From the sequence record MT129652.1: a stretch of DNA of 64,000 bases; one strand, 5' to 3'. Positions 4,790 through 59,117 of the stretch are shown piece by piece (position 1 is the stretch's first letter; every line of letters starts with the position of its first letter). The translations under genes were made by a program, and so were the position numbers. The DNA is from Escherichia phage MN01. The notes beneath the pieces were generated by a model. That model did no database searches. It worked only from the letters and a program-made list of their open reading frames with translations, and was not told where the DNA came from.

Positions 4790-5065
4790 ATGGGCACCAT
4801 GGGTGAAACAATGAACTGGTTAACAAATATTCCCACATCGGCGCTGGATATCGACCGTAAACATGCTCATAAGGAAATCGAGCAACAAAAAATTAATCGG
4901 TTACAAAGGCTTAAGACTGAATCCGAGACAATTAAAGCCGAACGACCGACAGAATCGAAAAGTTCTTACTCATCATATCAATCTCCTAACTCATCATATC
5001 AATCTCCTATTGGCATGGCCGTAGACATTGCAGTCTTTGGCGTTCCACTTGGAGTGTTTAAGTAG
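4790..5065 (+). CDS. hypothetical protein with tandem SSYQSP repeat
   Basis: ORF in track; contains a 2 x 21 nt direct repeat encoding SSYQSP-SSYQSP. Confidence 0.35.
   Translation: MGTMGETMNWLTNIPTSALDIDRKHAHKEIEQQKINRLQRLKTESETIKAERPTESKSSYSSYQSPNSSYQSPIGMAVDIAVFGVPLGVFK
4968..5010 (+). repeat. short tandem direct repeat (2 x about 21 nt) inside coding sequence
   Basis: tcatcatatcaatctcct occurs twice in tandem. Confidence 0.7.
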
Positions 5066-5121
5066 TTTACTTACTCCCCTCCTAATGACATAATGGTCTT
5101 TCTTACAACAGAGAGACCATT

Positions 5122-5682
5122 ATGAACATCATCAAATCTGATACCGAACCCAACCAGTTAAAATTTAGTGAAATGGAGATAGCTTCATTATTTGAATGCC
5201 GCACATCAAAGGTTGATAAGACCTTGCATTCAAATGTCAACTCAATCATCAAGTCAAGGTTGTCTATACCCGATACAGTCTTGTGGCGCGGAGTAACCCA
5301 GCAAGAGATTGATTTGTTAGATGAAGCAAAAGAATCAATGCAACCTTTTGAATTTGGACGGGTAACCTCCTTTACAGAAGACTATGGTATTGCCAGGGAT
5401 TTTGCTGCAATGGAATATGTGACTAGGACTATCGTCAGATTGAATCAGACCAAAGCTTTTTGTTACCATGATGCGATGCGCAAAATCGCGCTTGACGTTC
5501 CACTGGAATTCTTCAATACAGCTTCTGGTTCCGCCCGGGCAGCTACATTAAGGCGCGAAGAATACATGGACATGATTGATTCTGAGCTTGAATGGTTTGT
5601 TCCAGTTGACCAGAAATTCGTGGTAGTTGACGCTGGATTTGTTGGTGATTATTATGTTCTTGACTGTGTACAAGAGCAATAA
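5122..5682 (+). CDS. ADP-ribosyltransferase, ModB-like
   Basis: 186 aa; R-S-E class ART triad in order: LWRG (Arg), TSFT (STS-like), ELEWF (E-x-E); sits in the modB slot upstream of dda. Confidence 0.5.
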   Translation: MNIIKSDTEPNQLKFSEMEIASLFECRTSKVDKTLHSNVNSIIKSRLSIPDTVLWRGVTQQEIDLLDEAKESMQPFEFGRVTSFTEDYGIARDFAAMEYVTRTIVRLNQTKAFCYHDAMRKIALDVPLEFFNTASGSARAATLRREEYMDMIDSELEWFVPVDQKFVVVDAGFVGDYYVLDCVQEQ

Positions 5683-6400: not shown

Positions 6401-6430
6401 GTGTACATGAAAGATGAACAGTGTATAATA
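6401..6430 (+). promoter_or_regulatory. early-type promoter (GTGTACA -35, 17 nt spacer, TATAAT -10)
   Basis: Member of a repeated promoter cassette family; followed by conserved leader CATACTGAGTTACC. Confidence 0.55.
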
Positions 6431-9800: not shown

Positions 9801-9830
9801 GTGTACAAGGCCAATGGAAAGAGACATAAT
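9801..9830 (+). promoter_or_regulatory. early-type promoter (GTGTACA -35, CATAAT -10)
   Basis: Cassette family member; followed by stem-loop CATCAACTACTGATG and SD AGGA. Confidence 0.55.
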
Positions 9831-9861
9831 TATCTCATCAACTACTGATGAGGATAACAAA

Positions 9862-10874: not shown

Positions 10875-10882
10875 ATTTAAAG

Positions 10883-10911
10883 TGTACAAACTCTTGGGGT
10901 CGGAGTATAAT
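10883..10911 (+). promoter_or_regulatory. early-type promoter (GTGTACA -35, TATAAT -10 inside GGGGTC/GACCCC inverted repeat)
   Basis: Cassette family member. Confidence 0.55.
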
Positions 10912-10953
10912 GACCCCACTGGAGAATAAACTTATTAACCAAGAGAGAAAATT

Positions 10954-11514
10954 ATGAAAGTTGAAGCTGGCGAAATCGTTCGCGTATCCAAAAAATCTCG
11001 TTCAAGAGCTGCTGGACGTTTTGTTGAGGTTGTCAGTATTCGTGCTGATATTTTTGTTGACCATCCTGATAATGAAGTAAAGGTGCGTATCATTCCCAAA
11101 AATGGTCAGACTGAAACTCAATTCGCTTATGTACGTGCTAAATTCCTGGAATCAACTGCTATCACTGCCACCAACCTCCCTGTGGTTGAAGAAGTTGAAT
11201 CCCATGATGGATATGTGTGCGAAAGCAATGATATTCGTGGCGTAATTGCTCAAGACGTTGAAACCATTGACCAGTCTCATGTTGGGGTTGATTTTAAATG
11301 GAAATTGGGCAAAGGTGTCTTTTTTGTTTCACCTAAACCGTTTGAATATGTTGACGAACCTTTTGGTACTTATGAAACCACTAGCATGTCTGGTTACATC
11401 ACAGACCAGTGGGTTGAAGAAGGCGTTAAGCTCTATAACATCGTGTTCCTTGGAACCTTTAAGGTGGTTCCTGAAAGCTTTATCGTTGAGTATGCTGATA
11501 TTCATCGTGCCTAA
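10954..11514 (+). CDS. hypothetical protein (186 aa), paralogue of 10119-10874
   Basis: Shared C-terminal block ITDQWVEEGVxLxNxVxxGxFxVVP. Confidence 0.5.
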   Translation: MKVEAGEIVRVSKKSRSRAAGRFVEVVSIRADIFVDHPDNEVKVRIIPKNGQTETQFAYVRAKFLESTAITATNLPVVEEVESHDGYVCESNDIRGVIAQDVETIDQSHVGVDFKWKLGKGVFFVSPKPFEYVDEPFGTYETTSMSGYITDQWVEEGVKLYNIVFLGTFKVVPESFIVEYADIHRA

Positions 11515-17889: not shown

Positions 17890-18867
17890 ATGTTTAATAT
17901 CAAATGTATGTCTAAAGCCGAACAAGCTGATGTGGTCCAGATGTATTCAACGGGCAATTATACCCAGCCTGAATTGGCAGAATATTTTGCTGTGTCCGTT
18001 GACACCATTCGCCGCGTTTTGAAAAATGATAAAGAATCAAAATTAGCTAGAACCATTTCCGCATCACTGAAAGCAGCTGTTGGTGTGGCGATTAATGCTC
18101 CGGTGACAGTAACGGTTGAAGTCCCGGTTGCTGATACAATCGGCGGTAGCCGCCCGGAAATCGTATGGAACGCATCAAGCAAATTCGTTTCCATCACCGA
18201 AGGCCGCACGGTCTGGAACGCAACAAAAGACCATAAACACTTTGATGATATTATTCAGGCATTGATTGAATTCCGGTATGAAGATGCTATCGAGTTTATC
18301 TCTATCAAAGCTGCAGTGCAAAAATATGTGAAAGGTGATGTGCGTATTGAAGGTGGTAGCCTGTTCTATCAGGGAATTGAACTGCGCTCTGGTTTGGTTA
18401 CTCGTATCATCGATTCAATGCAAAATGGCGAAGACTTTGAATTCTATCTGCCATTCCTTGAAAATCTCCTTGAGAACCCGAGTGAGAAAGCTGTACAGCG
18501 TTTGTTTGACTTCTTGGTTGCTAACGATATCGAAATCACCGAAGATGGCCATTTCATCGCCTGGAAAATGGTTCGTTCAACCTACAAAGATTGCCACTCA
18601 AATACATTCGACAACAGCCCTGGTCAATATGTTAAAATGCCGCGCTCTCGTGTGAATGACAATGACGAACAGACCTGTTCAACTGGGCTGCACGTTTGTT
18701 CTAAAGGTTATATCGGAAGTGGCTTTGGTCATGGTGATGGGCGCATCGTATCCTGTAAAGTTCACCCGCGCGATGTTGTAAGCATCCCGGTGGATTATTC
18801 CGATAGTAAGATGAGGGTTTGCGGTTACCTGGTTCTTGAAGATGTGACCGAACGTTTCAATGATTAA
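17890..18867 (+). CDS. rIIB: rIIB
   Basis: 325 aa (T4 312 aa); immediately follows rIIA with a 1-nt gap. Confidence 0.85.
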   Translation: MFNIKCMSKAEQADVVQMYSTGNYTQPELAEYFAVSVDTIRRVLKNDKESKLARTISASLKAAVGVAINAPVTVTVEVPVADTIGGSRPEIVWNASSKFVSITEGRTVWNATKDHKHFDDIIQALIEFRYEDAIEFISIKAAVQKYVKGDVRIEGGSLFYQGIELRSGLVTRIIDSMQNGEDFEFYLPFLENLLENPSEKAVQRLFDFLVANDIEITEDGHFIAWKMVRSTYKDCHSNTFDNSPGQYVKMPRSRVNDNDEQTCSTGLHVCSKGYIGSGFGHGDGRIVSCKVHPRDVVSIPVDYSDSKMRVCGYLVLEDVTERFND

Positions 18868-19351
18868 ACAAACAATTGCTAAAGATGGCTCGGCTCGTGG
18901 TATTGTCCACGGGCTAGGTCACACGCCTGAATACATTGTATGGATTGGCATGAAAGCTCGGTGTTGCAATCCAACACATATTAGTTATTCTCGATATGGC
19001 GGTCGGGGTATCACTGTTTGCGATGAATGGCTGCATGATTTTGAAAGATTTTATACAGATATGGGGCCACGACCCACTGACAAACATCAACTTGACCGAA
19101 CAGATAACGATAAAGGGTACTCTCCCGATAACTGCAGATGGGTTAGTCCAGGCGAGAATGCTTTAAATAAGCGCCCGTATAATAACAACAAGTCTGGATT
19201 TAAAGGAGTCTCGTTTGATAAACGAGCTTTGAATAAACCATGGCGAGCCACTATTATGCGAAATAAAAAACAAATTCAAGTCGGAGCTTTTGCAACTCCA
19301 GAAGAAGCAAATGAAGCTCGATTAAAATATATGGAAGAACACAATGTCTAA
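18860..19351 (+). CDS. HNH-family (HNH_3-like) endonuclease with C-terminal AP2 DNA-binding domain
   Basis: 163 aa; EYIVWIGMKARCCNP...GGRGI.VCDEW N-terminal block, LDRTDNDKGYSPDNCRWVSPGENALNKR HNH-like core, GFKGVSFDKRALNKPWRATIMRNKKQIQVGAFATPEEA AP2 motif; start overlaps the rIIB stop. Confidence 0.7.
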   Translation: MIKQTIAKDGSARGIVHGLGHTPEYIVWIGMKARCCNPTHISYSRYGGRGITVCDEWLHDFERFYTDMGPRPTDKHQLDRTDNDKGYSPDNCRWVSPGENALNKRPYNNNKSGFKGVSFDKRALNKPWRATIMRNKKQIQVGAFATPEEANEARLKYMEEHNV

Positions 19352-19553
19352 AGAAATGTTAGGTTTCCAAGCACGTGTAGTTGAAGAATATGACCAGCTG
19401 GTTTTGAAAATCAATGCTCTTGAAGAGTTTATCAAGGGTGGAGTTTTTGAAACTCTTGATATCCGTCAACAAGGTCTTTTGATTGCCCAACTGGATGCGA
19501 TGGGCGCATATGCTCATGTACTGGCAATCCGTATCTCTTATTTTGGTGAATAA
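19344..19553 (+). CDS. hypothetical protein (69 aa)
   Basis: ORF in track, start overlaps previous stop. Confidence 0.35.
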   Translation: MSKEMLGFQARVVEEYDQLVLKINALEEFIKGGVFETLDIRQQGLLIAQLDAMGAYAHVLAIRISYFGE

Positions 19554-20736: not shown

Positions 20737-20766
20737 GTGTACATCAGTATGGAGTCTATGTATAAT
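20737..20766 (+). promoter_or_regulatory. early-type promoter (GTGTACA -35, TATAAT -10 inside CAGTATGG/CCATACTG inverted repeat)
   Basis: Cassette family member. Confidence 0.55.
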
Positions 20767-20802
20767 GATTCCATACTGAGTTACCAAATACTGGAGAATA
20801 AA

Positions 20803-20958
20803 ATGAAACCTGCTCAATATGCAATGACTTTATACCTTGAAGTTAATGGCGATATTACTGAATTTTTTAAATTAATGCAACAGCGCGGAAAAAGTTTTGC
20901 AGTTACTGAGCGTCAATTTTACGCGTGTCGCAAAAATACATACAATCGTTATGCATGA
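20803..20958 (+). CDS. hypothetical protein (51 aa)
   Basis: ATG after CTGGAGAATAAA leader. Confidence 0.3.
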   Translation: MKPAQYAMTLYLEVNGDITEFFKLMQQRGKSFAVTERQFYACRKNTYNRYA

Positions 20959-21319: not shown

Positions 21320-21349
21320 GTATACATCTCCAGTGGTTGTAGTATAATG
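21320..21349 (+). promoter_or_regulatory. early-type promoter (GTATACA -35, TATAAT -10)
   Basis: Cassette variant, followed by TATCAACTACTGGAGATGATT-ATG. Confidence 0.45.
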
Positions 21350-21501
21350 AACCTATCAACTACTGGAGATGATTATGAAAAAGTTACTTAAAGCCATTTG
21401 GAACATGTTTGTACTGTTTGTTGTCCTGAGCATTTTCCCAATTGTTTTTATGATTGACCATGTACGTGTTTACTTTAACTATTTCTTTTGAGGATAATAT
21501 T

Positions 21502-21865: not shown

Positions 21866-22107
21866 AACTTTTTAAAGACATTGCAGTTGGTGAAAAATTT
21901 GTCCTGGGTAATGGTCAACAACTGATTCGCATTTCGCCTTTGATGGATAACAGCGAGCGCCCTGTGCGCACTGAAAACTGTTTGGATTATCCTTTTTATC
22001 AGAAGCGTTTTGCAATTGAAAATAATACTGAGTGCTTCACAGTTGATGAACTGATGGAATCATCAGAAGAAGTTGACTTGTGGGATGGCGCAGTTGATGT
22101 AGAATAG
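21862..22107 (+). CDS. hypothetical protein (81 aa)
   Basis: ORF in track; ATGA-coupled to previous. Confidence 0.35.
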   Translation: MKLFKDIAVGEKFVLGNGQQLIRISPLMDNSERPVRTENCLDYPFYQKRFAIENNTECFTVDELMESSEEVDLWDGAVDVE

Positions 22108-22136
22108 TGTACAAACTTTTGGGAGCAGAGTATAAT
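22107..22136 (+). promoter_or_regulatory. early-type promoter (GTGTACA -35, TATAAT -10 inside GGGAGC/GTTCCC inverted repeat)
   Basis: Cassette family member. Confidence 0.55.
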
Positions 22137-22175
22137 GTTCCCAGTGGATAATAAAATTTAGCTGAGGAAATCATT

Positions 22176-22520
22176 ATGTCTAAAGTATTTTTTGGTAATC
22201 GCAACATTATGTTCTTTAAACAGATTAGCGTATCAGAAGCATTTGATTTAAGTTATTCAGGCGGTACAAAAGCTGTTAACCTTAAAAATTTGATGTCTGC
22301 AGAATTTGCATTCTATCAGGACCCTGAAACTGGTTTCTACAAATTTATTAAGTTCCGCATGACTATGGACCGCGATTATCGTGATGTTTATTATACAAGT
22401 TATGAAAGTGTTATCAATGCAATTCGTGAAGCTTATGGATTGGATTCGTTGTCGCTTGACCGCCTGTATAATGCAAGCCTTTACACCAGTGGATTTATTT
22501 TAGAACAGCTTCAAAAATAG
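22176..22520 (+). CDS. hypothetical protein (114 aa)
   Basis: ORF in track with GAGGAAATCATT-ATG context. Confidence 0.4.
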   Translation: MSKVFFGNRNIMFFKQISVSEAFDLSYSGGTKAVNLKNLMSAEFAFYQDPETGFYKFIKFRMTMDRDYRDVYYTSYESVINAIREAYGLDSLSLDRLYNASLYTSGFILEQLQK

Positions 22521-22549
22521 TGTACAAACTCTTGGGGTCTGAGTATAAT
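22520..22549 (+). promoter_or_regulatory. early-type promoter (GTGTACA -35, TATAAT -10 inside GGGGTC/GACCCC inverted repeat)
   Basis: Cassette family member. Confidence 0.55.
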
Positions 22550-22593
22550 GACCCCACTGGAGCACAAAACTTTAACTTACTGAGGAAATTAAT

Positions 22594-24897: not shown

Positions 24898-24925
24898 CTA
24901 GGACCCTTCGGGGTCCTTTTTTATT
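24898..24925 (+). terminator. rho-independent terminator (AGGACCC-TTCG-GGGTCCT + T-tract)
   Basis: UUCG tetraloop hairpin followed by TTTTTT. Confidence 0.6.
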
Positions 24926-24946
24926 TTAAAATATTTTAAAAAAGTA

Positions 24947-24976
24947 GTGTACATGACCCTTGACCTGATGCATAAT
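24947..24976 (+). promoter_or_regulatory. early-type promoter (GTGTACA -35, CATAAT -10)
   Basis: Cassette family member with CATACTGAGTTACAC leader. Confidence 0.55.
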
Positions 24977-25025
24977 GATTCCATACTGAGTTACACAATG
25001 AATCACAAAAACTTTGGAGAATAAA

Positions 25026-27137: not shown

Positions 27138-27370
27138 GCACGATTTCAATAAGGCGTCTGTCCATAAGGATAAGAAGAAAACTGAAATGCAGTCCAAACG
27201 TAAGCAGAAGCACAAGGGGAATCATTATGAGTCATAACTTAGAGAACACCATTACTGGCCAGCGTACACGCGAACAGTCTTGCTTTGAGGAATTCCTTGG
27301 AGCAGATTTTAAGTTCCAGGAACCAGTTGAACAGATGTATCAGGAATATGTTGTACAGATGGAAAATCAT

Positions 27371-27400
27371 GTGTACAACCCAGAGGAATAATAGTATAAT
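27371..27400 (+). promoter_or_regulatory. early-type promoter (GTGTACA -35, TATAAT -10) upstream of asiA
   Basis: Cassette -35/-10 with 17-nt spacer. Confidence 0.5.
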
Positions 27401-39965: not shown

Positions 39966-40630
39966 TTACGATTCGCATGCCTCCAAATAACAACCGATAC
40001 ATAAATGGTAAATCAGTATATCAACTGTACTTATCCATCAAACAGCATTTTTCGGGTCGTTATGATATTATCAAATATAACTGGACCATGCGAATCTCCG
40101 ATAGTGCTTATCAAAAACGTCGCGATAAGTATTTTTTCGAAAAGCTTAGCGATAAGTACACTCTCAAAGAATTAACATTAATATTCATGTCAAACCTGGT
40201 CGCGAACCAGGATGCATGGATAGGTGATATAAGTGATGCTGATGCTCTGATATTTTATCGAGAATACATTGGCAGACTTAAAAGAATTAAACAAGTATAC
40301 GAAGATGATATAAAGAATATCTATTACTTCAGTAAGAAAGTCGAAGTCAAATCGCTTCAAGAGATTTTCGAGTATAATACTAAAGTAAACACAAGTTATA
40401 TTTTCAAACTTCTCCAATCGAATGTTATCTCATTTGAAACGTTTTGTTTGCTTGATTCATTTTTAGGTATTATAAATAAACATGATGAACAGACCAACGA
40501 CTTGGTTTGGGAAAAGTATTCAACCAAACTAAATGCCTATAAGAAAATCTTAAATATCGATTCTCTTGAAGCTCGTAAATTGTTCATCGAGACCGTTAAA
40601 AACTGTCAAATAACGCTTCAAGCACTTTGA
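39962..40630 (+). CDS. 59: helicase loader gp59
   Basis: 222 aa (T4 217 aa); near-identical blocks to T4 gp59 as remembered (DGKSVY.LYL.IKQH, KYNW.MR.SD.AYQKRRDKYFF.KLS, SNLVANQDAWIGDISDADAL.FYREYIGRLK, YYFSKKVEV). Confidence 0.9.
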   Translation: MITIRMPPNNNRYINGKSVYQLYLSIKQHFSGRYDIIKYNWTMRISDSAYQKRRDKYFFEKLSDKYTLKELTLIFMSNLVANQDAWIGDISDADALIFYREYIGRLKRIKQVYEDDIKNIYYFSKKVEVKSLQEIFEYNTKVNTSYIFKLLQSNVISFETFCLLDSFLGIINKHDEQTNDLVWEKYSTKLNAYKKILNIDSLEARKLFIETVKNCQITLQAL

Positions 40631-40690
40631 AGTATAATTAATACGTAATCAAAACAACTGCTAAAAATCAAATAATCTAAGGAAAATCAT

Positions 40691-41605: not shown

Positions 41606-41634
41606 AAGGGGACCTTCGGGTCCCTTTTTTATTT
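41606..41634 (+). terminator. rho-independent terminator after gene 32 (GGGACC-TTCG-GGTCCC + T-tract)
   Basis: UUCG tetraloop hairpin followed by TTTTTT. Confidence 0.65.
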
Positions 41635-41644
41635 TCAAAAAGTA

Positions 41645-41674
41645 GTGTACAAGTCCTTTGAGCTAAGGCATAAT
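41645..41674 (+). promoter_or_regulatory. early-type promoter (GTGTACA -35, CATAAT -10)
   Basis: Cassette family member followed by CATCAACTACTGATA stem-loop and GAGGA SD. Confidence 0.55.
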
Positions 41675-41712
41675 GATTCCATCAACTACTGATAACAACT
41701 GAGGAAATAAAA

Positions 41713-42365: not shown

Positions 42366-42393
42366 GTATACAAACAAACGGGAACATGATAAT
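42366..42393 (+). promoter_or_regulatory. early-type promoter variant (GTATACA -35, GATAAT -10 inside GGAACAT/ATGTTCC inverted repeat)
   Basis: Cassette-like architecture. Confidence 0.45.
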
Positions 42394-42425
42394 ATGTTCC
42401 CTCAATTGAATATGAGGAAATTAAA

Positions 42426-43050: not shown

Positions 43051-43080
43051 GTGTACAACCAAATGGGGCTATGACATAAT
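43051..43080 (+). promoter_or_regulatory. early-type promoter (GTGTACA -35, CATAAT -10 inside ATGGG/CCCAT inverted repeat)
   Basis: Cassette family member. Confidence 0.55.
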
Positions 43081-43121
43081 GGTCCCATACTGAGTTAACA
43101 ACTAAAACACTGGAGAATAAA

Positions 43122-51087: not shown

Positions 51088-51097
51088 TAAAAAAGGG

Positions 51098-51127
51098 GTG
51101 TACAAGCCCCTTCTTTCTATACATAAT
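51098..51127 (+). promoter_or_regulatory. early-type promoter (GTGTACA -35, CATAAT -10)
   Basis: Cassette family member followed by CATCAACTACTGATG stem-loop. Confidence 0.55.
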
Positions 51128-51158
51128 GGTTCCATCAACTACTGATGAGGACCAAAAC

Positions 51159-52643: not shown

Positions 52644-52673
52644 GTGTACAAACTTATGGGAGCAGAGTATAAT
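52644..52673 (+). promoter_or_regulatory. early-type promoter (GTGTACA -35, TATAAT -10 inside GGGAGC/GCTCCC inverted repeat)
   Basis: Cassette family member. Confidence 0.55.
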
Positions 52674-52707
52674 GCTCCCACGGATTATAAAATTTGAGGA
52701 AATGACT

Positions 52708-55355: not shown

Positions 55356-55386
55356 GTGTTTACTTTCACCACGGATGGTGTATAAT
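55356..55386 (+). promoter_or_regulatory. early-type promoter (GTGTTTAC -35, TATAAT -10)
   Basis: Sigma-70-like elements with 17-nt spacing upstream of ORF 55416. Confidence 0.45.
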
Positions 55387-59006: not shown

Positions 59007-59034
59007 CAGGGACTCTTCGGAGTCCCTTTTTTAT
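59007..59034 (+). terminator. rho-independent terminator (GGGACTC-TTCG-GAGTCCC + T-tract)
   Basis: UUCG tetraloop hairpin followed by TTTTTT. Confidence 0.6.
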
Positions 59035-59046
59035 TTTCATAAAGGG

Positions 59047-59076
59047 GTGTACAACAGGATTTACCCAGTGCATAAT
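59047..59076 (+). promoter_or_regulatory. early-type promoter (GTGTACA -35, CATAAT -10)
   Basis: Cassette family member with CATACTGAGTTACAC leader. Confidence 0.55.
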
Positions 59077-59117
59077 GATTCCATACTGAGTTACACAATA
59101 AAACACTGGAGAATAAA

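Follow-up and report, generated by a model that had tools for sequence, protein, structure and literature searches.

Promoter early stem-loop (PeSL) elements, which join a repeated early promoter to a stem-loop in one cassette, were described in phages phi1 and RB49 (Krischvirus) with five stem-loop positions, the commonest being in the interval that separates the -35 from the -10 box or in overlap with the -10 box (Arbiol et al. 2010, PMC2839356). In that work the stems were usually polyG/polyC with G-T pairs marked, the stem of PeSL211/210 cut downstream lacZ as much as rrnB T1 did, "PeSL-like sequences" in JS98 were mentioned, and elements of T-even phages were treated as analogs. PeSLs were later reported in PST/T4 and nt-1/KVP40, where the stem-loop lies just upstream of the promoter and is called AT-richer (AGNA-loop-TCNT) (Comeau et al. 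2014, PMC4122927). Four T4 genes (e, soc, 49, and I-TevI) have their late promoter enclosed in a hairpin that sequesters the ribosome binding site (Uzan and Miller 2010, PMC3014915). Our literature search found no paper describing PeSLs in Gaprivervirus or Dhakavirus, and a search for maps of transcription start sites or termination in T4-type phages returned nothing directly relevant. Here we analyzed a 64,000-nucleotide (nt) stretch of Escherichia phage MN01 (MT129652.1), hereafter the window, which carries a family of repeated promoter cassettes, about half of them with an inverted repeat around the -10 hexamer. We consider it probable (about 0.6) that this Gaprivervirus-like T4-type phage carries, in these elements, composite regulatory cassettes of the PeSL type, and that the stems around the -10 act in read-through RNA.

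The source of the window is a T4-type myovirus in the VR7 group (Gaprivervirus, Tevenvirinae). Its nearest matches in GenBank were EAWsc9, TH54, and VR7, with 92-98% identity across most of the window, and the T4 early-gene direction corresponds to the + strand. A search for GTGTACA-N15-18-YATAAT gave 13 exact matches, all on the + strand and all with N16/17 spacing, while only 0.01 matches were expected from shuffled sequence (Table 1). When the variants GTATACA, GTTTACA/T, and GATAAT were allowed, there were 18 sites on the + strand and 0 on the - strand, including an additional site at 5065 and one at 21468 within an open reading frame (ORF), which is probably spurious; the complete genome of TH54 had 26 and 0 sites by strand. 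All of the at least 16 shared sites listed in the initial annotation were found, those at 21320, 42366, and about 55356 being motif variants. The sites are intergenic or abut a stop codon. Upstream there is an A-rich stretch, typically AAAAAGTA, and downstream one of two conserved leaders, GATTCCATACTGAGTTAC or GATTCCATCAACTACTGA, then a Shine-Dalgarno (SD) sequence and ATG. Among the T4 early genes that follow are ndd, asiA, and those of the frd and pseT regions. The strand exclusivity and this context support the earlier assignment of the sites as early promoters, putatively of the sigma-70 type. As in PeSLs, the repeated intergenic early promoter has an A/T-rich stretch upstream, and the cassette ends at its 3' side with the SD and start codon of the downstream gene, such as GGAGAATAAAATG at 20793-20805.

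To analyze the inverted repeats, we looked at each site for the best Watson-Crick stem that pairs the spacer with the 20 nt following the -10. The chance test covered 14 sites of the form GTGTACA (at most one mismatch)-N16/17-YATAAT, and the mean stem length over these sites was above that obtained by swapping arms between sites (partner permutation, P=0.001) and by shuffling the spacer (0/2000 shuffles reached the observed mean), which means that the arms are complementary beyond chance. The signal stems from about half of the sites. A strong stem that places the -10 within or next to its loop was present in 8 of the 17 intergenic cassettes (10882, 20737, 21320, 22107, 22520, 42366, 43051, and 52644), and the same analysis found no -10 stem at 6401, 9801, 24947, 27371, 41645, 51098, 55358, and 59047. 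So the proposed placement of the -10 in the loop of an inverted repeat is true for these eight cassettes, but not as a property of the whole promoter family. Every arm pair that had been listed is present and most are longer than stated, but the 16-pair stem at 21320 had been missed. The -10 stems have 7-16 base pairs (bp), with RNA folding free energies (dG) of -11.9 to -21.3 kcal/mol and z scores of -3.4 to -6.1 against dinucleotide shuffles. In the commonest register, a 7-bp stem encloses a 10-nt loop made of four nucleotides and the hexamer, and the 3' arm begins right after the -10 and ends about at the expected transcription start; at 42366 the loop is exactly the -10 hexamer GATAAT. A scan of all YATAAT/GATAAT hexamers that permitted GU pairs was noisy (17 matches vs about 8 expected), and its convincing hits were only those linked to the -35 motif. 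No Rfam family matched at gathering thresholds in the whole window. Counting all placements, a stable stem-loop was found at a variable position in or near the promoter, as in PeSLs: around the -10 in 8 cassettes, upstream in 3, and over the -35 in 1-2.

Pairing in the -10 stems was preserved while their sequence changed. We collected 77 distinct cassette cores from the window, the further Gaprivervirus genomes VR7, EAWsc9, TH54, TH41, TH15, TH44, and TH57 (in part), Dhakavirus VR5, and phage fDHCT2; about 30 of them carry a stem around the -10, and these stems have at least 12 distinct sequences. Those seen in other genomes include ATGGGATA/TATCCCAT, TGATAGGGT/ACCCTATCA, AGTATGGGGA/TTCCCATACT, and CGAGAATC/GGTTCTCG, the last of which replaces the stem upstream of ndd in the fDHCT2 ortholog of 22520. 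A compensated T-A to C-G change separates TGGGGTC/GACCCCA at 10882 from GTGGGGCC/GGTCCCAC in its TH41 ortholog, and another compensated change separates TGGGAGC/GCTCCCA at 52644 from TGGGAGT/ACTCCCA in a Tequatrovirus copy. In an alignment of 21 distinct cassettes sharing the register with the 10-nt loop, 5 of the 7 pairs were changed on both sides, and covariation was 0.547 compared with 0.272 in shuffles, none of which (0/500) was as high. The compensatory change that the initial annotation took as a sign of selection for pairing is thus borne out.

The mismatches in the stems were asymmetric between the strands. With a stem finder that handles G.T and A.C mismatches identically, we counted about 10 independent G.T/T.G pairs and 1 A.C, the latter at a stem end (binomial about 0.01 by our own count). 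Changes that create G.T pairs include GCTCCCA to GCTCCTA, seen in the orthologs of 52644 in VR7, EAWsc9, VR5, and fDHCT2, GGGAACAT to GGGGACAT at 42366 in EAWsc9, and CTCCAGT to CTCCGGT; the VR7 ortholog of 21320 also has an A to G change that produces a G.T pair. Moreover, for 7 of the 8 window cassettes folding is more stable on the + strand than on the reverse complement, by up to 7-8 kcal/mol (43051, -14.6 vs -6.3; 22107, -14.2 vs -7.3). Together, the G.T asymmetry and the better folding of the + strand argue for selection on a + sense single strand, for which RNA would be the simplest candidate.

Each cassette runs in the order A-rich stretch, -35 (GTGTACA, i.e., TGTACA), 17-nt spacer, -10 (T/CATAAT), short conserved leader, SD, and ATG, and would recruit host sigma-70 RNA polymerase early in infection. 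Most cassettes carry one stem-loop, whose arms in the -10 class lie in the spacer and in the discriminator/+1 region. With its 5' arm upstream of the presumed transcription start of the cassette, the -10 stem could not form in the cassette's own mRNA, so it would form only in RNA reading through from upstream promoters. There it would most likely be an attenuator or insulator of read-through expression, as reported for the promoter-embedded RB49 PeSL stems without a T-run. At two sites the stem would additionally sequester translation signals. The 3' arm at 21320 contains the SD GGAG (21365-21368) of the downstream small ORF, and the hairpin at 5065 begins with the -10 hexamer (5089-5094) and ends on the start codon of ORF 5122-5682, so that at 5065 the SD and AUG would be hidden in read-through RNA and free in the proximal transcript. 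We propose that at both sites the downstream gene would therefore be translated only from its own promoter's transcript. The cassettes might also be substrates for homologous exchange, because they are near-repeats of about 60-100 nt in direct orientation.

Several points weigh against this explanation. We infer promoter activity, the start sites (about 7 nt after the -10), and read-through from the sequence, and RNA-level action and attenuation are inferred in the same way. The -10 stems have no T-run, hence they are not canonical intrinsic terminators, and the attenuator role is drawn by analogy from one reporter experiment on a different stem in another genus. A stem without a T-run might attenuate read-through RNA or affect its processing or stability, and it might occasionally gate translation. 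The G.T-tolerant + sense single strand could be DNA instead of RNA, and 2-4 cassettes have no convincing stem-loop at all. In the 21-cassette alignment, pairing was 99%, compared with 41-53% when the 3' partner was slid by 1-3 columns, but the percentage paired is partly circular because the rows were chosen for pairing; the double-sided changes and the slide control are free of that circularity. Finally, the cassettes were not enriched at sites of gene-content change: when the window was compared with seven close relatives (49 distinct similarity-break edges outside the tail-fibre block), junctions fell at 4/16 cassette boundaries and 29/85 other gene boundaries (Fisher p=0.84), and by-eye correction of the mis-assigned 20737 and 59047, which gave about 6/17 cassette boundaries, left the result unchanged.

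Of the three mechanisms offered in the initial annotation, a hairpin in read-through RNA is favoured by the excess of G.T over A.C, but a cruciform and a protein binding site are not. A DNA-level structure, which we regard as unlikely, would be a cruciform or a fold of single-stranded DNA in replication or recombination, and it would modulate promoter opening (with the -10 single-stranded) or act as a recombination hotspot for gene shuffling. Arbiol et al. speculated that the GGGG...CCCC stem may be a target of a recombination protein and mapped a mini-circle crossover in the loop of a stem-loop (PMC2839356). In our material, gain or loss affected cassette 22107 as a whole, and cassette 41645 contains a crossover; moreover, no mismatch destabilises DNA less than G.T does, which is compatible with single-stranded DNA of the + strand. 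However, a cruciform requires both strands to be folded, and on the - strand each G.T becomes A.C and folding is clearly weaker (43051 and 22107). The crossover at 41645 sits after the -10, in sequence conserved across copies and outside any stem, in a cassette without a -10 stem, and junctions were not enriched at cassettes. Arms of only seven bp that flank a 10-nt spacer do not readily extrude as a cruciform. The cruciform was rejected for the strand asymmetry and the long loop. Chance complementarity, or inheritance through duplication of one ancestral palindromic cassette, would need no function at all. Several copies are clearly paralogous (10882, 22107, 22520, and 52644 share AAACTYTTGGG...AGAGTATAAT), so not all copies are independent, but the shuffle and permutation tests, the slid-partner control, the orthologous sites with changes on both sides of a pair, and the presence of unrelated stems at 20737, 21320, 42366, and in TH54 make this explanation hardly credible.

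General translational gating, in which the hairpin would hide the ribosome binding site on read-through RNA as in T4 e, soc, 49, and I-TevI, appears still less probable than a DNA-level structure. In all stems of the -10 class the 5' arm precedes the presumed start, which is also the arrangement at the T4 late promoters (PMC3014915), so the promoter lies inside the hairpin and the proximal transcript would lack that arm. The SD GGAG is inside the 3' arm at 21320, and the -10 pairs with the start codon at 5065, and these are the only two sites where the SD or AUG is sequestered in the read-through hairpin. At 10882, 20737, 22107, 22520, 42366, 43051, and 52644, the 3' arm stops about 13-40 nt before a free SD/ATG; gating cannot be the general function because these signals lie free in seven -10-class cassettes. 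A palindromic operator, at which a dimeric phage or host protein would bind across the -10 to switch early promoters off, would fit a repeat centred on the -10, which is an effective repressor position, and T4-type phages do shut off early transcription. But there are at least 12 unrelated arm sequences with no common recognition sequence, half of the promoters have no repeat, register and loop length vary (6 to 13 nt), and a G.T strand asymmetry is meaningless for a double-stranded DNA site. The operator was rejected for its too many different arm sequences, and we give it hardly any weight. Two further candidates were dropped: a canonical intrinsic terminator for the -10 stems, because they have no T-run, and an N4-type hairpin promoter, because the -35/-10 spacing is the normal sigma-70 design. 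N4-type hairpin promoters have a short stem, a 3-nt loop, and a phage-encoded polymerase.

A variant of the read-through RNA explanation, which we hold only tentatively and consider doubtful, would make the -10-straddling stems a distinct functional class that tags only read-through RNA and gives the two transcript populations of a gene different processing, stability, or translation; it would do so because the stem ends almost at the cassette's own +1 and has no T-run. If true, the T4 logic of a late promoter inside a hairpin would extend to early promoters across the Tevenvirinae, because genomes of Gaprivervirus, Dhakavirus-like phages, and Tequatrovirus all contain this cassette.

The remaining cassettes carry their stem-loop elsewhere or have none (Table 1). 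At 24947, 41645, and 59047 there are terminators with a 7-9-bp G/C stem, a UUCG loop, and a T-run 17-29 nt upstream of the -35, and an upstream terminator was found at none of the eight -10-stem cassettes, so the two placements are complementary. An independent terminator scanner called on the + strand exactly the elements at 24947, 41645, 59047, and 51098; it called none of the -10 stems as a + strand terminator, and these are followed not by a T-run but by tails such as CTGGAGAATA, GTTACCAAAT, and TCAATTGAAT. A -10 stem is typically found where only 0-10 nt separate the preceding stop codon from the -35 (10882, 20737, 22107, 22520, 42366, and 43051), and those six sites leave no room for a separate terminator.

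Table 1 Promoter cassettes of the window (motif search; exact = GTGTACA-N15-18-YATAAT; dG in kcal/mol)
Site	Extent	Strand	Promoter	Stem-loop or terminator	dG	z	Context
5065	5065-5124	+	GTTTACT-N17-CATAAT	hairpin 5089-5103 / 5110-5124, 15 pairs, CATAATGGTCTTTCT / AGAGAGACCATTATG	-19.7		
6401	6401-6429	+	exact	no significant stem			
9801	9801-9853	+	exact	no -10 stem; small hairpin TCTCATCA-actac-TGATGAGG, 9833-9853			hairpin in own 5' untranslated region
10882	10882-10918	+	exact; TATAAT 10906-10911	TGGGGTC 10895-10901 / GACCCCA 10912-10918	-17.4	-3.8	
20737	20737-20805	+	exact; GTGTACA 20737-20743; TATAAT 20761-20766	5' arm TCAGTATGGAGTC 20744-20756; 3' arm GATTCCATACTGA 20767-20779; 13 pairs	-19.3	-6.1	SD GGAG 20793-20796; ATG 20803-20805
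21320	21320-21377	+	variant GTATACA-N16-TATAAT; TATAAT 21343-21348	16-pair stem 21327-21342 / 21353-21369	-21.3	-5.7	
22107	22107-22144	+	exact; TATAAT 22131-22136	TTGGGAGC 22119-22126 / GTTCCCAG 22137-22144; G.T pairs			
22520	22520-22556	+	exact; TATAAT 22544-22549	TGGGGTC 22533-22539 / GACCCCA 22550-22556			upstream of ndd
24947	24900-24976	+	exact; promoter 24947-24976	terminator AGGACCC-ttcg-GGGTCCT + T-run, 24900-24927; no -10 stem			
27371	27350-27400	+	exact; promoter 27371-27400	inverted repeat GTTGTACA...TGTACAAC spanning -35			upstream of asiA
41645	41606-41674	+	exact; promoter 41645-41674	terminator AAGGGGACC-ttcg-GGTCCCTTT + T-run			downstream of gene 32
42366	42366-42401	+	variant GTATACA-N15-GATAAT; GATAAT 42388-42393	GGGAACAT 42380-42387 / ATGTTCCC 42394-42401	-11.9	-4.4	
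43051	43051-43088	+	exact; CATAAT 43075-43080	ATGGGGCT 43063-43070 / GGTCCCAT 43081-43088; G.T pairs			
51098	51093-51127	+	exact; promoter 51098-51127	stem over -35: AAGGGGT-gtacaa-GCCCCTT then CTTTCT			
52644	52644-52680	+	exact; TATAAT 52668-52673	TGGGAGC 52657-52663 / GCTCCCA 52674-52680			
55358	55358-55386	+	variant, T4-style GTTTACT-N16-TATAAT	weak 5-bp stem in spacer			
59047	59008-59076	+	exact; promoter 59047-59076	terminator AGGGACTC-ttcg-GAGTCCCT + T-run			

The gene order of the window is rIIB, denB, ndd, 52, motA, arn, and asiA, then a - strand tail-fibre/holin block at about 27.7-38.4 kb, and then rnh, 32, frd, td, nrdAB, rnlA, alc, pseT, cd, 31, rIII, and 30. The asiA promoter lies in the 3' end of ORF 27227-27391, and its repeat over the -35 has 8 bp and a 14-nt loop. 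The two leaders, GATTCCATACTGAGTTAC (leader A: 20767-20784, 24977-24994, 43081-43098, 59077-59094) and GATTCCATCAACTACTGA (leader B: 41675-41692, 51128-51145, 9831-9853), directly follow the -10, and many early mRNAs would begin with one of them; leader B could form a small hairpin at the 5' terminus, for example that at 9833-9853. At 10912-10956, the stem is followed by GACCCCACTGGAGAATAAAC, which resembles the SD-start module ACTGGAGAATAAAATG of other cassettes with the ATG lost, and a second SD and the real ATG at 10954 lie downstream; GACCCCACTGGAGAATAAAC may be what remains of a former gene start after recombination between cassettes. In phage VR5, a MotA-box-like TGCTTA upstream of gene 32 (about 18880-18920 of stretch L132) precedes ATGAAGTA-gta-TATAAT-TACTTCAT, in which a perfect stem of 8 bp encloses the -10 in its loop at an apparent middle promoter, so the design is perhaps not confined to early promoters.

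PeSLs are characterized by a preference for hyperplastic regions and for junctions of insertion, deletion, or replacement, and the initial annotation had suggested a link between the cassettes and changes in flanking gene content. Such a link finds no statistical support in the junction test above, but individual cassettes do behave like modules. Cassette 22107 is a module of about 52 nt between the stop codon of ndd.1 and the next SD, which by BLAST anchors is present in the window, TH41, and TH44 and absent in VR7, TH54, and TH15, and EAWsc9 has a small ORF in its place. Cassettes 22107 and 22520 are near-identical direct repeats flanking ORF 22176-22520, an arrangement that would allow mini-circle recombination. 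After gene 32, cassette 41645 is identical in all relatives up to CATAATGATTCCAT, and different leaders and genes follow, which we read from the alignments as a mosaic junction between relatives with a crossover within the cassette. A similarity break against VR7/TH54 begins at 20805, at the end of cassette 20737, the frd.2 and frd.3 modules between 41645, 42366, and 43051 have a different order in VR7, TH15, and TH57, and TH57 has a 370-nt insertion at about 59020, near cassette 59047. Two indels of the homing-endonuclease type were also seen: window 18853-19356, with an HNH ORF (18860-19351) missing in TH41, TH15, and TH44, and window 40600-40631, where genes 59 and 32 of VR7 and TH15 are separated by an extra stretch of about 683 nt, annotated in VR7 with a SegG-like endonuclease.

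When IMG/VR was scanned with a loose motif, the hits were mostly from unrelated viruses and could not be used, and a subfamily-specific scan gave about 11 copies in three or four VR-type genomes. Tequatrovirus LF73P1 carries T4-like AAACTCTTGGG...AGAGTATAAT cassettes at about 142413 and 81171, with stems TGGGAGT/ACTCCCA and TGGGATC/GGTCCTG. Judged from its distribution, this AAACTCTTGGG...AGAGTATAAT subfamily would predate the split of Tequatrovirus and Gaprivervirus. The analysis extends PeSL-type cassettes to the VR7/Gaprivervirus lineage, and, through the GGGAGY/RCTCCC subfamily, also to genomes of the Dhakavirus-like and T4-like kinds. Beyond the original PeSL papers, it adds quantitative covariation, a G.U strand asymmetry indicating that promoter-embedded stems would act in sense-strand RNA, the complementary placement of stem-loops, and the finding that junctions are not statistically enriched. 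In annotation and in phage engineering, the cassettes would mark the starts of early transcription units and intergenic modules that are gained or lost as units.

Compared with described systems, the -10 stems share with intrinsic terminators a stable G/C-rich stem right after an ORF on the transcribed strand, but they have no T-run, and terminators with UUCG and a T-run stand at other cassettes of the window. With T4 e, soc, 49, and I-TevI they share a promoter inside a hairpin, a proximal transcript without the 5' arm so that only read-through RNA would fold, and, at 21320 and 5065, an SD or AUG in the 3' arm; unlike those late promoters, the window promoters are of the early sigma-70 type, and the ribosome binding site is outside the stem in most copies. 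The PST/T4 PeSLs, also from Tevenvirinae, have a similar -35 (TTTACW, with TGTACA/TTTACA in the window), and a stem-loop just upstream of the promoter, as in PST, is found at 24947, 41645, and 59047. G/C-rich stems around the -10, which occur in the window and also in a Tequatrovirus genome, are not described in PMC4122927.

The closest likeness is to the PeSLs of phi1/RB49. Both are intergenic repeats of an A/T-rich stretch, -35, N17, -10, SD, and ATG with one stem-loop, often G-tract/C-tract with G-T pairs, which may overlap the -10 and has no T-run; in both, direct-repeat cassettes flank small ORFs of unknown function, and gain, loss, and mosaicism occur at the level of the cassette. We located PeSL211/210 in RB49 as TTGACA-GGGGAT-cacgt-ATCCCC-TATACT, which is promoter-embedded and without a T-run. 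The cassettes do not qualify as homologs, since RB49 has TTGACA-GGGGATC..GATCCCC-TATAAT and the window has the -35 GTGTACA, but homology is not required for the PeSL class because its authors treat the T-even elements themselves as analogs. The window cassettes differ in their conserved downstream leaders and in an indel association that is not statistically detectable, and their activity is predicted from sequence, whereas promoter and attenuator activity were measured for phi1/RB49. In the RB49 stretch that we scanned, both arms are in the spacer and abut the -10, while in the window one arm lies on each side of the -10, which places the hexamer in the loop, and the 3' arm extends to about +1. 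The initial annotation was correct in suggesting a relationship to PeSLs, but the promoter-embedded geometry that it set apart is not new, because straddling arms and spacer arms are a difference of register within the described class. The cassettes thus belong to the known PeSL design and are no new kind of element, since stem-loops overlapping the -10 already rank among the commonest positions (Arbiol et al. 2010, PMC2839356).

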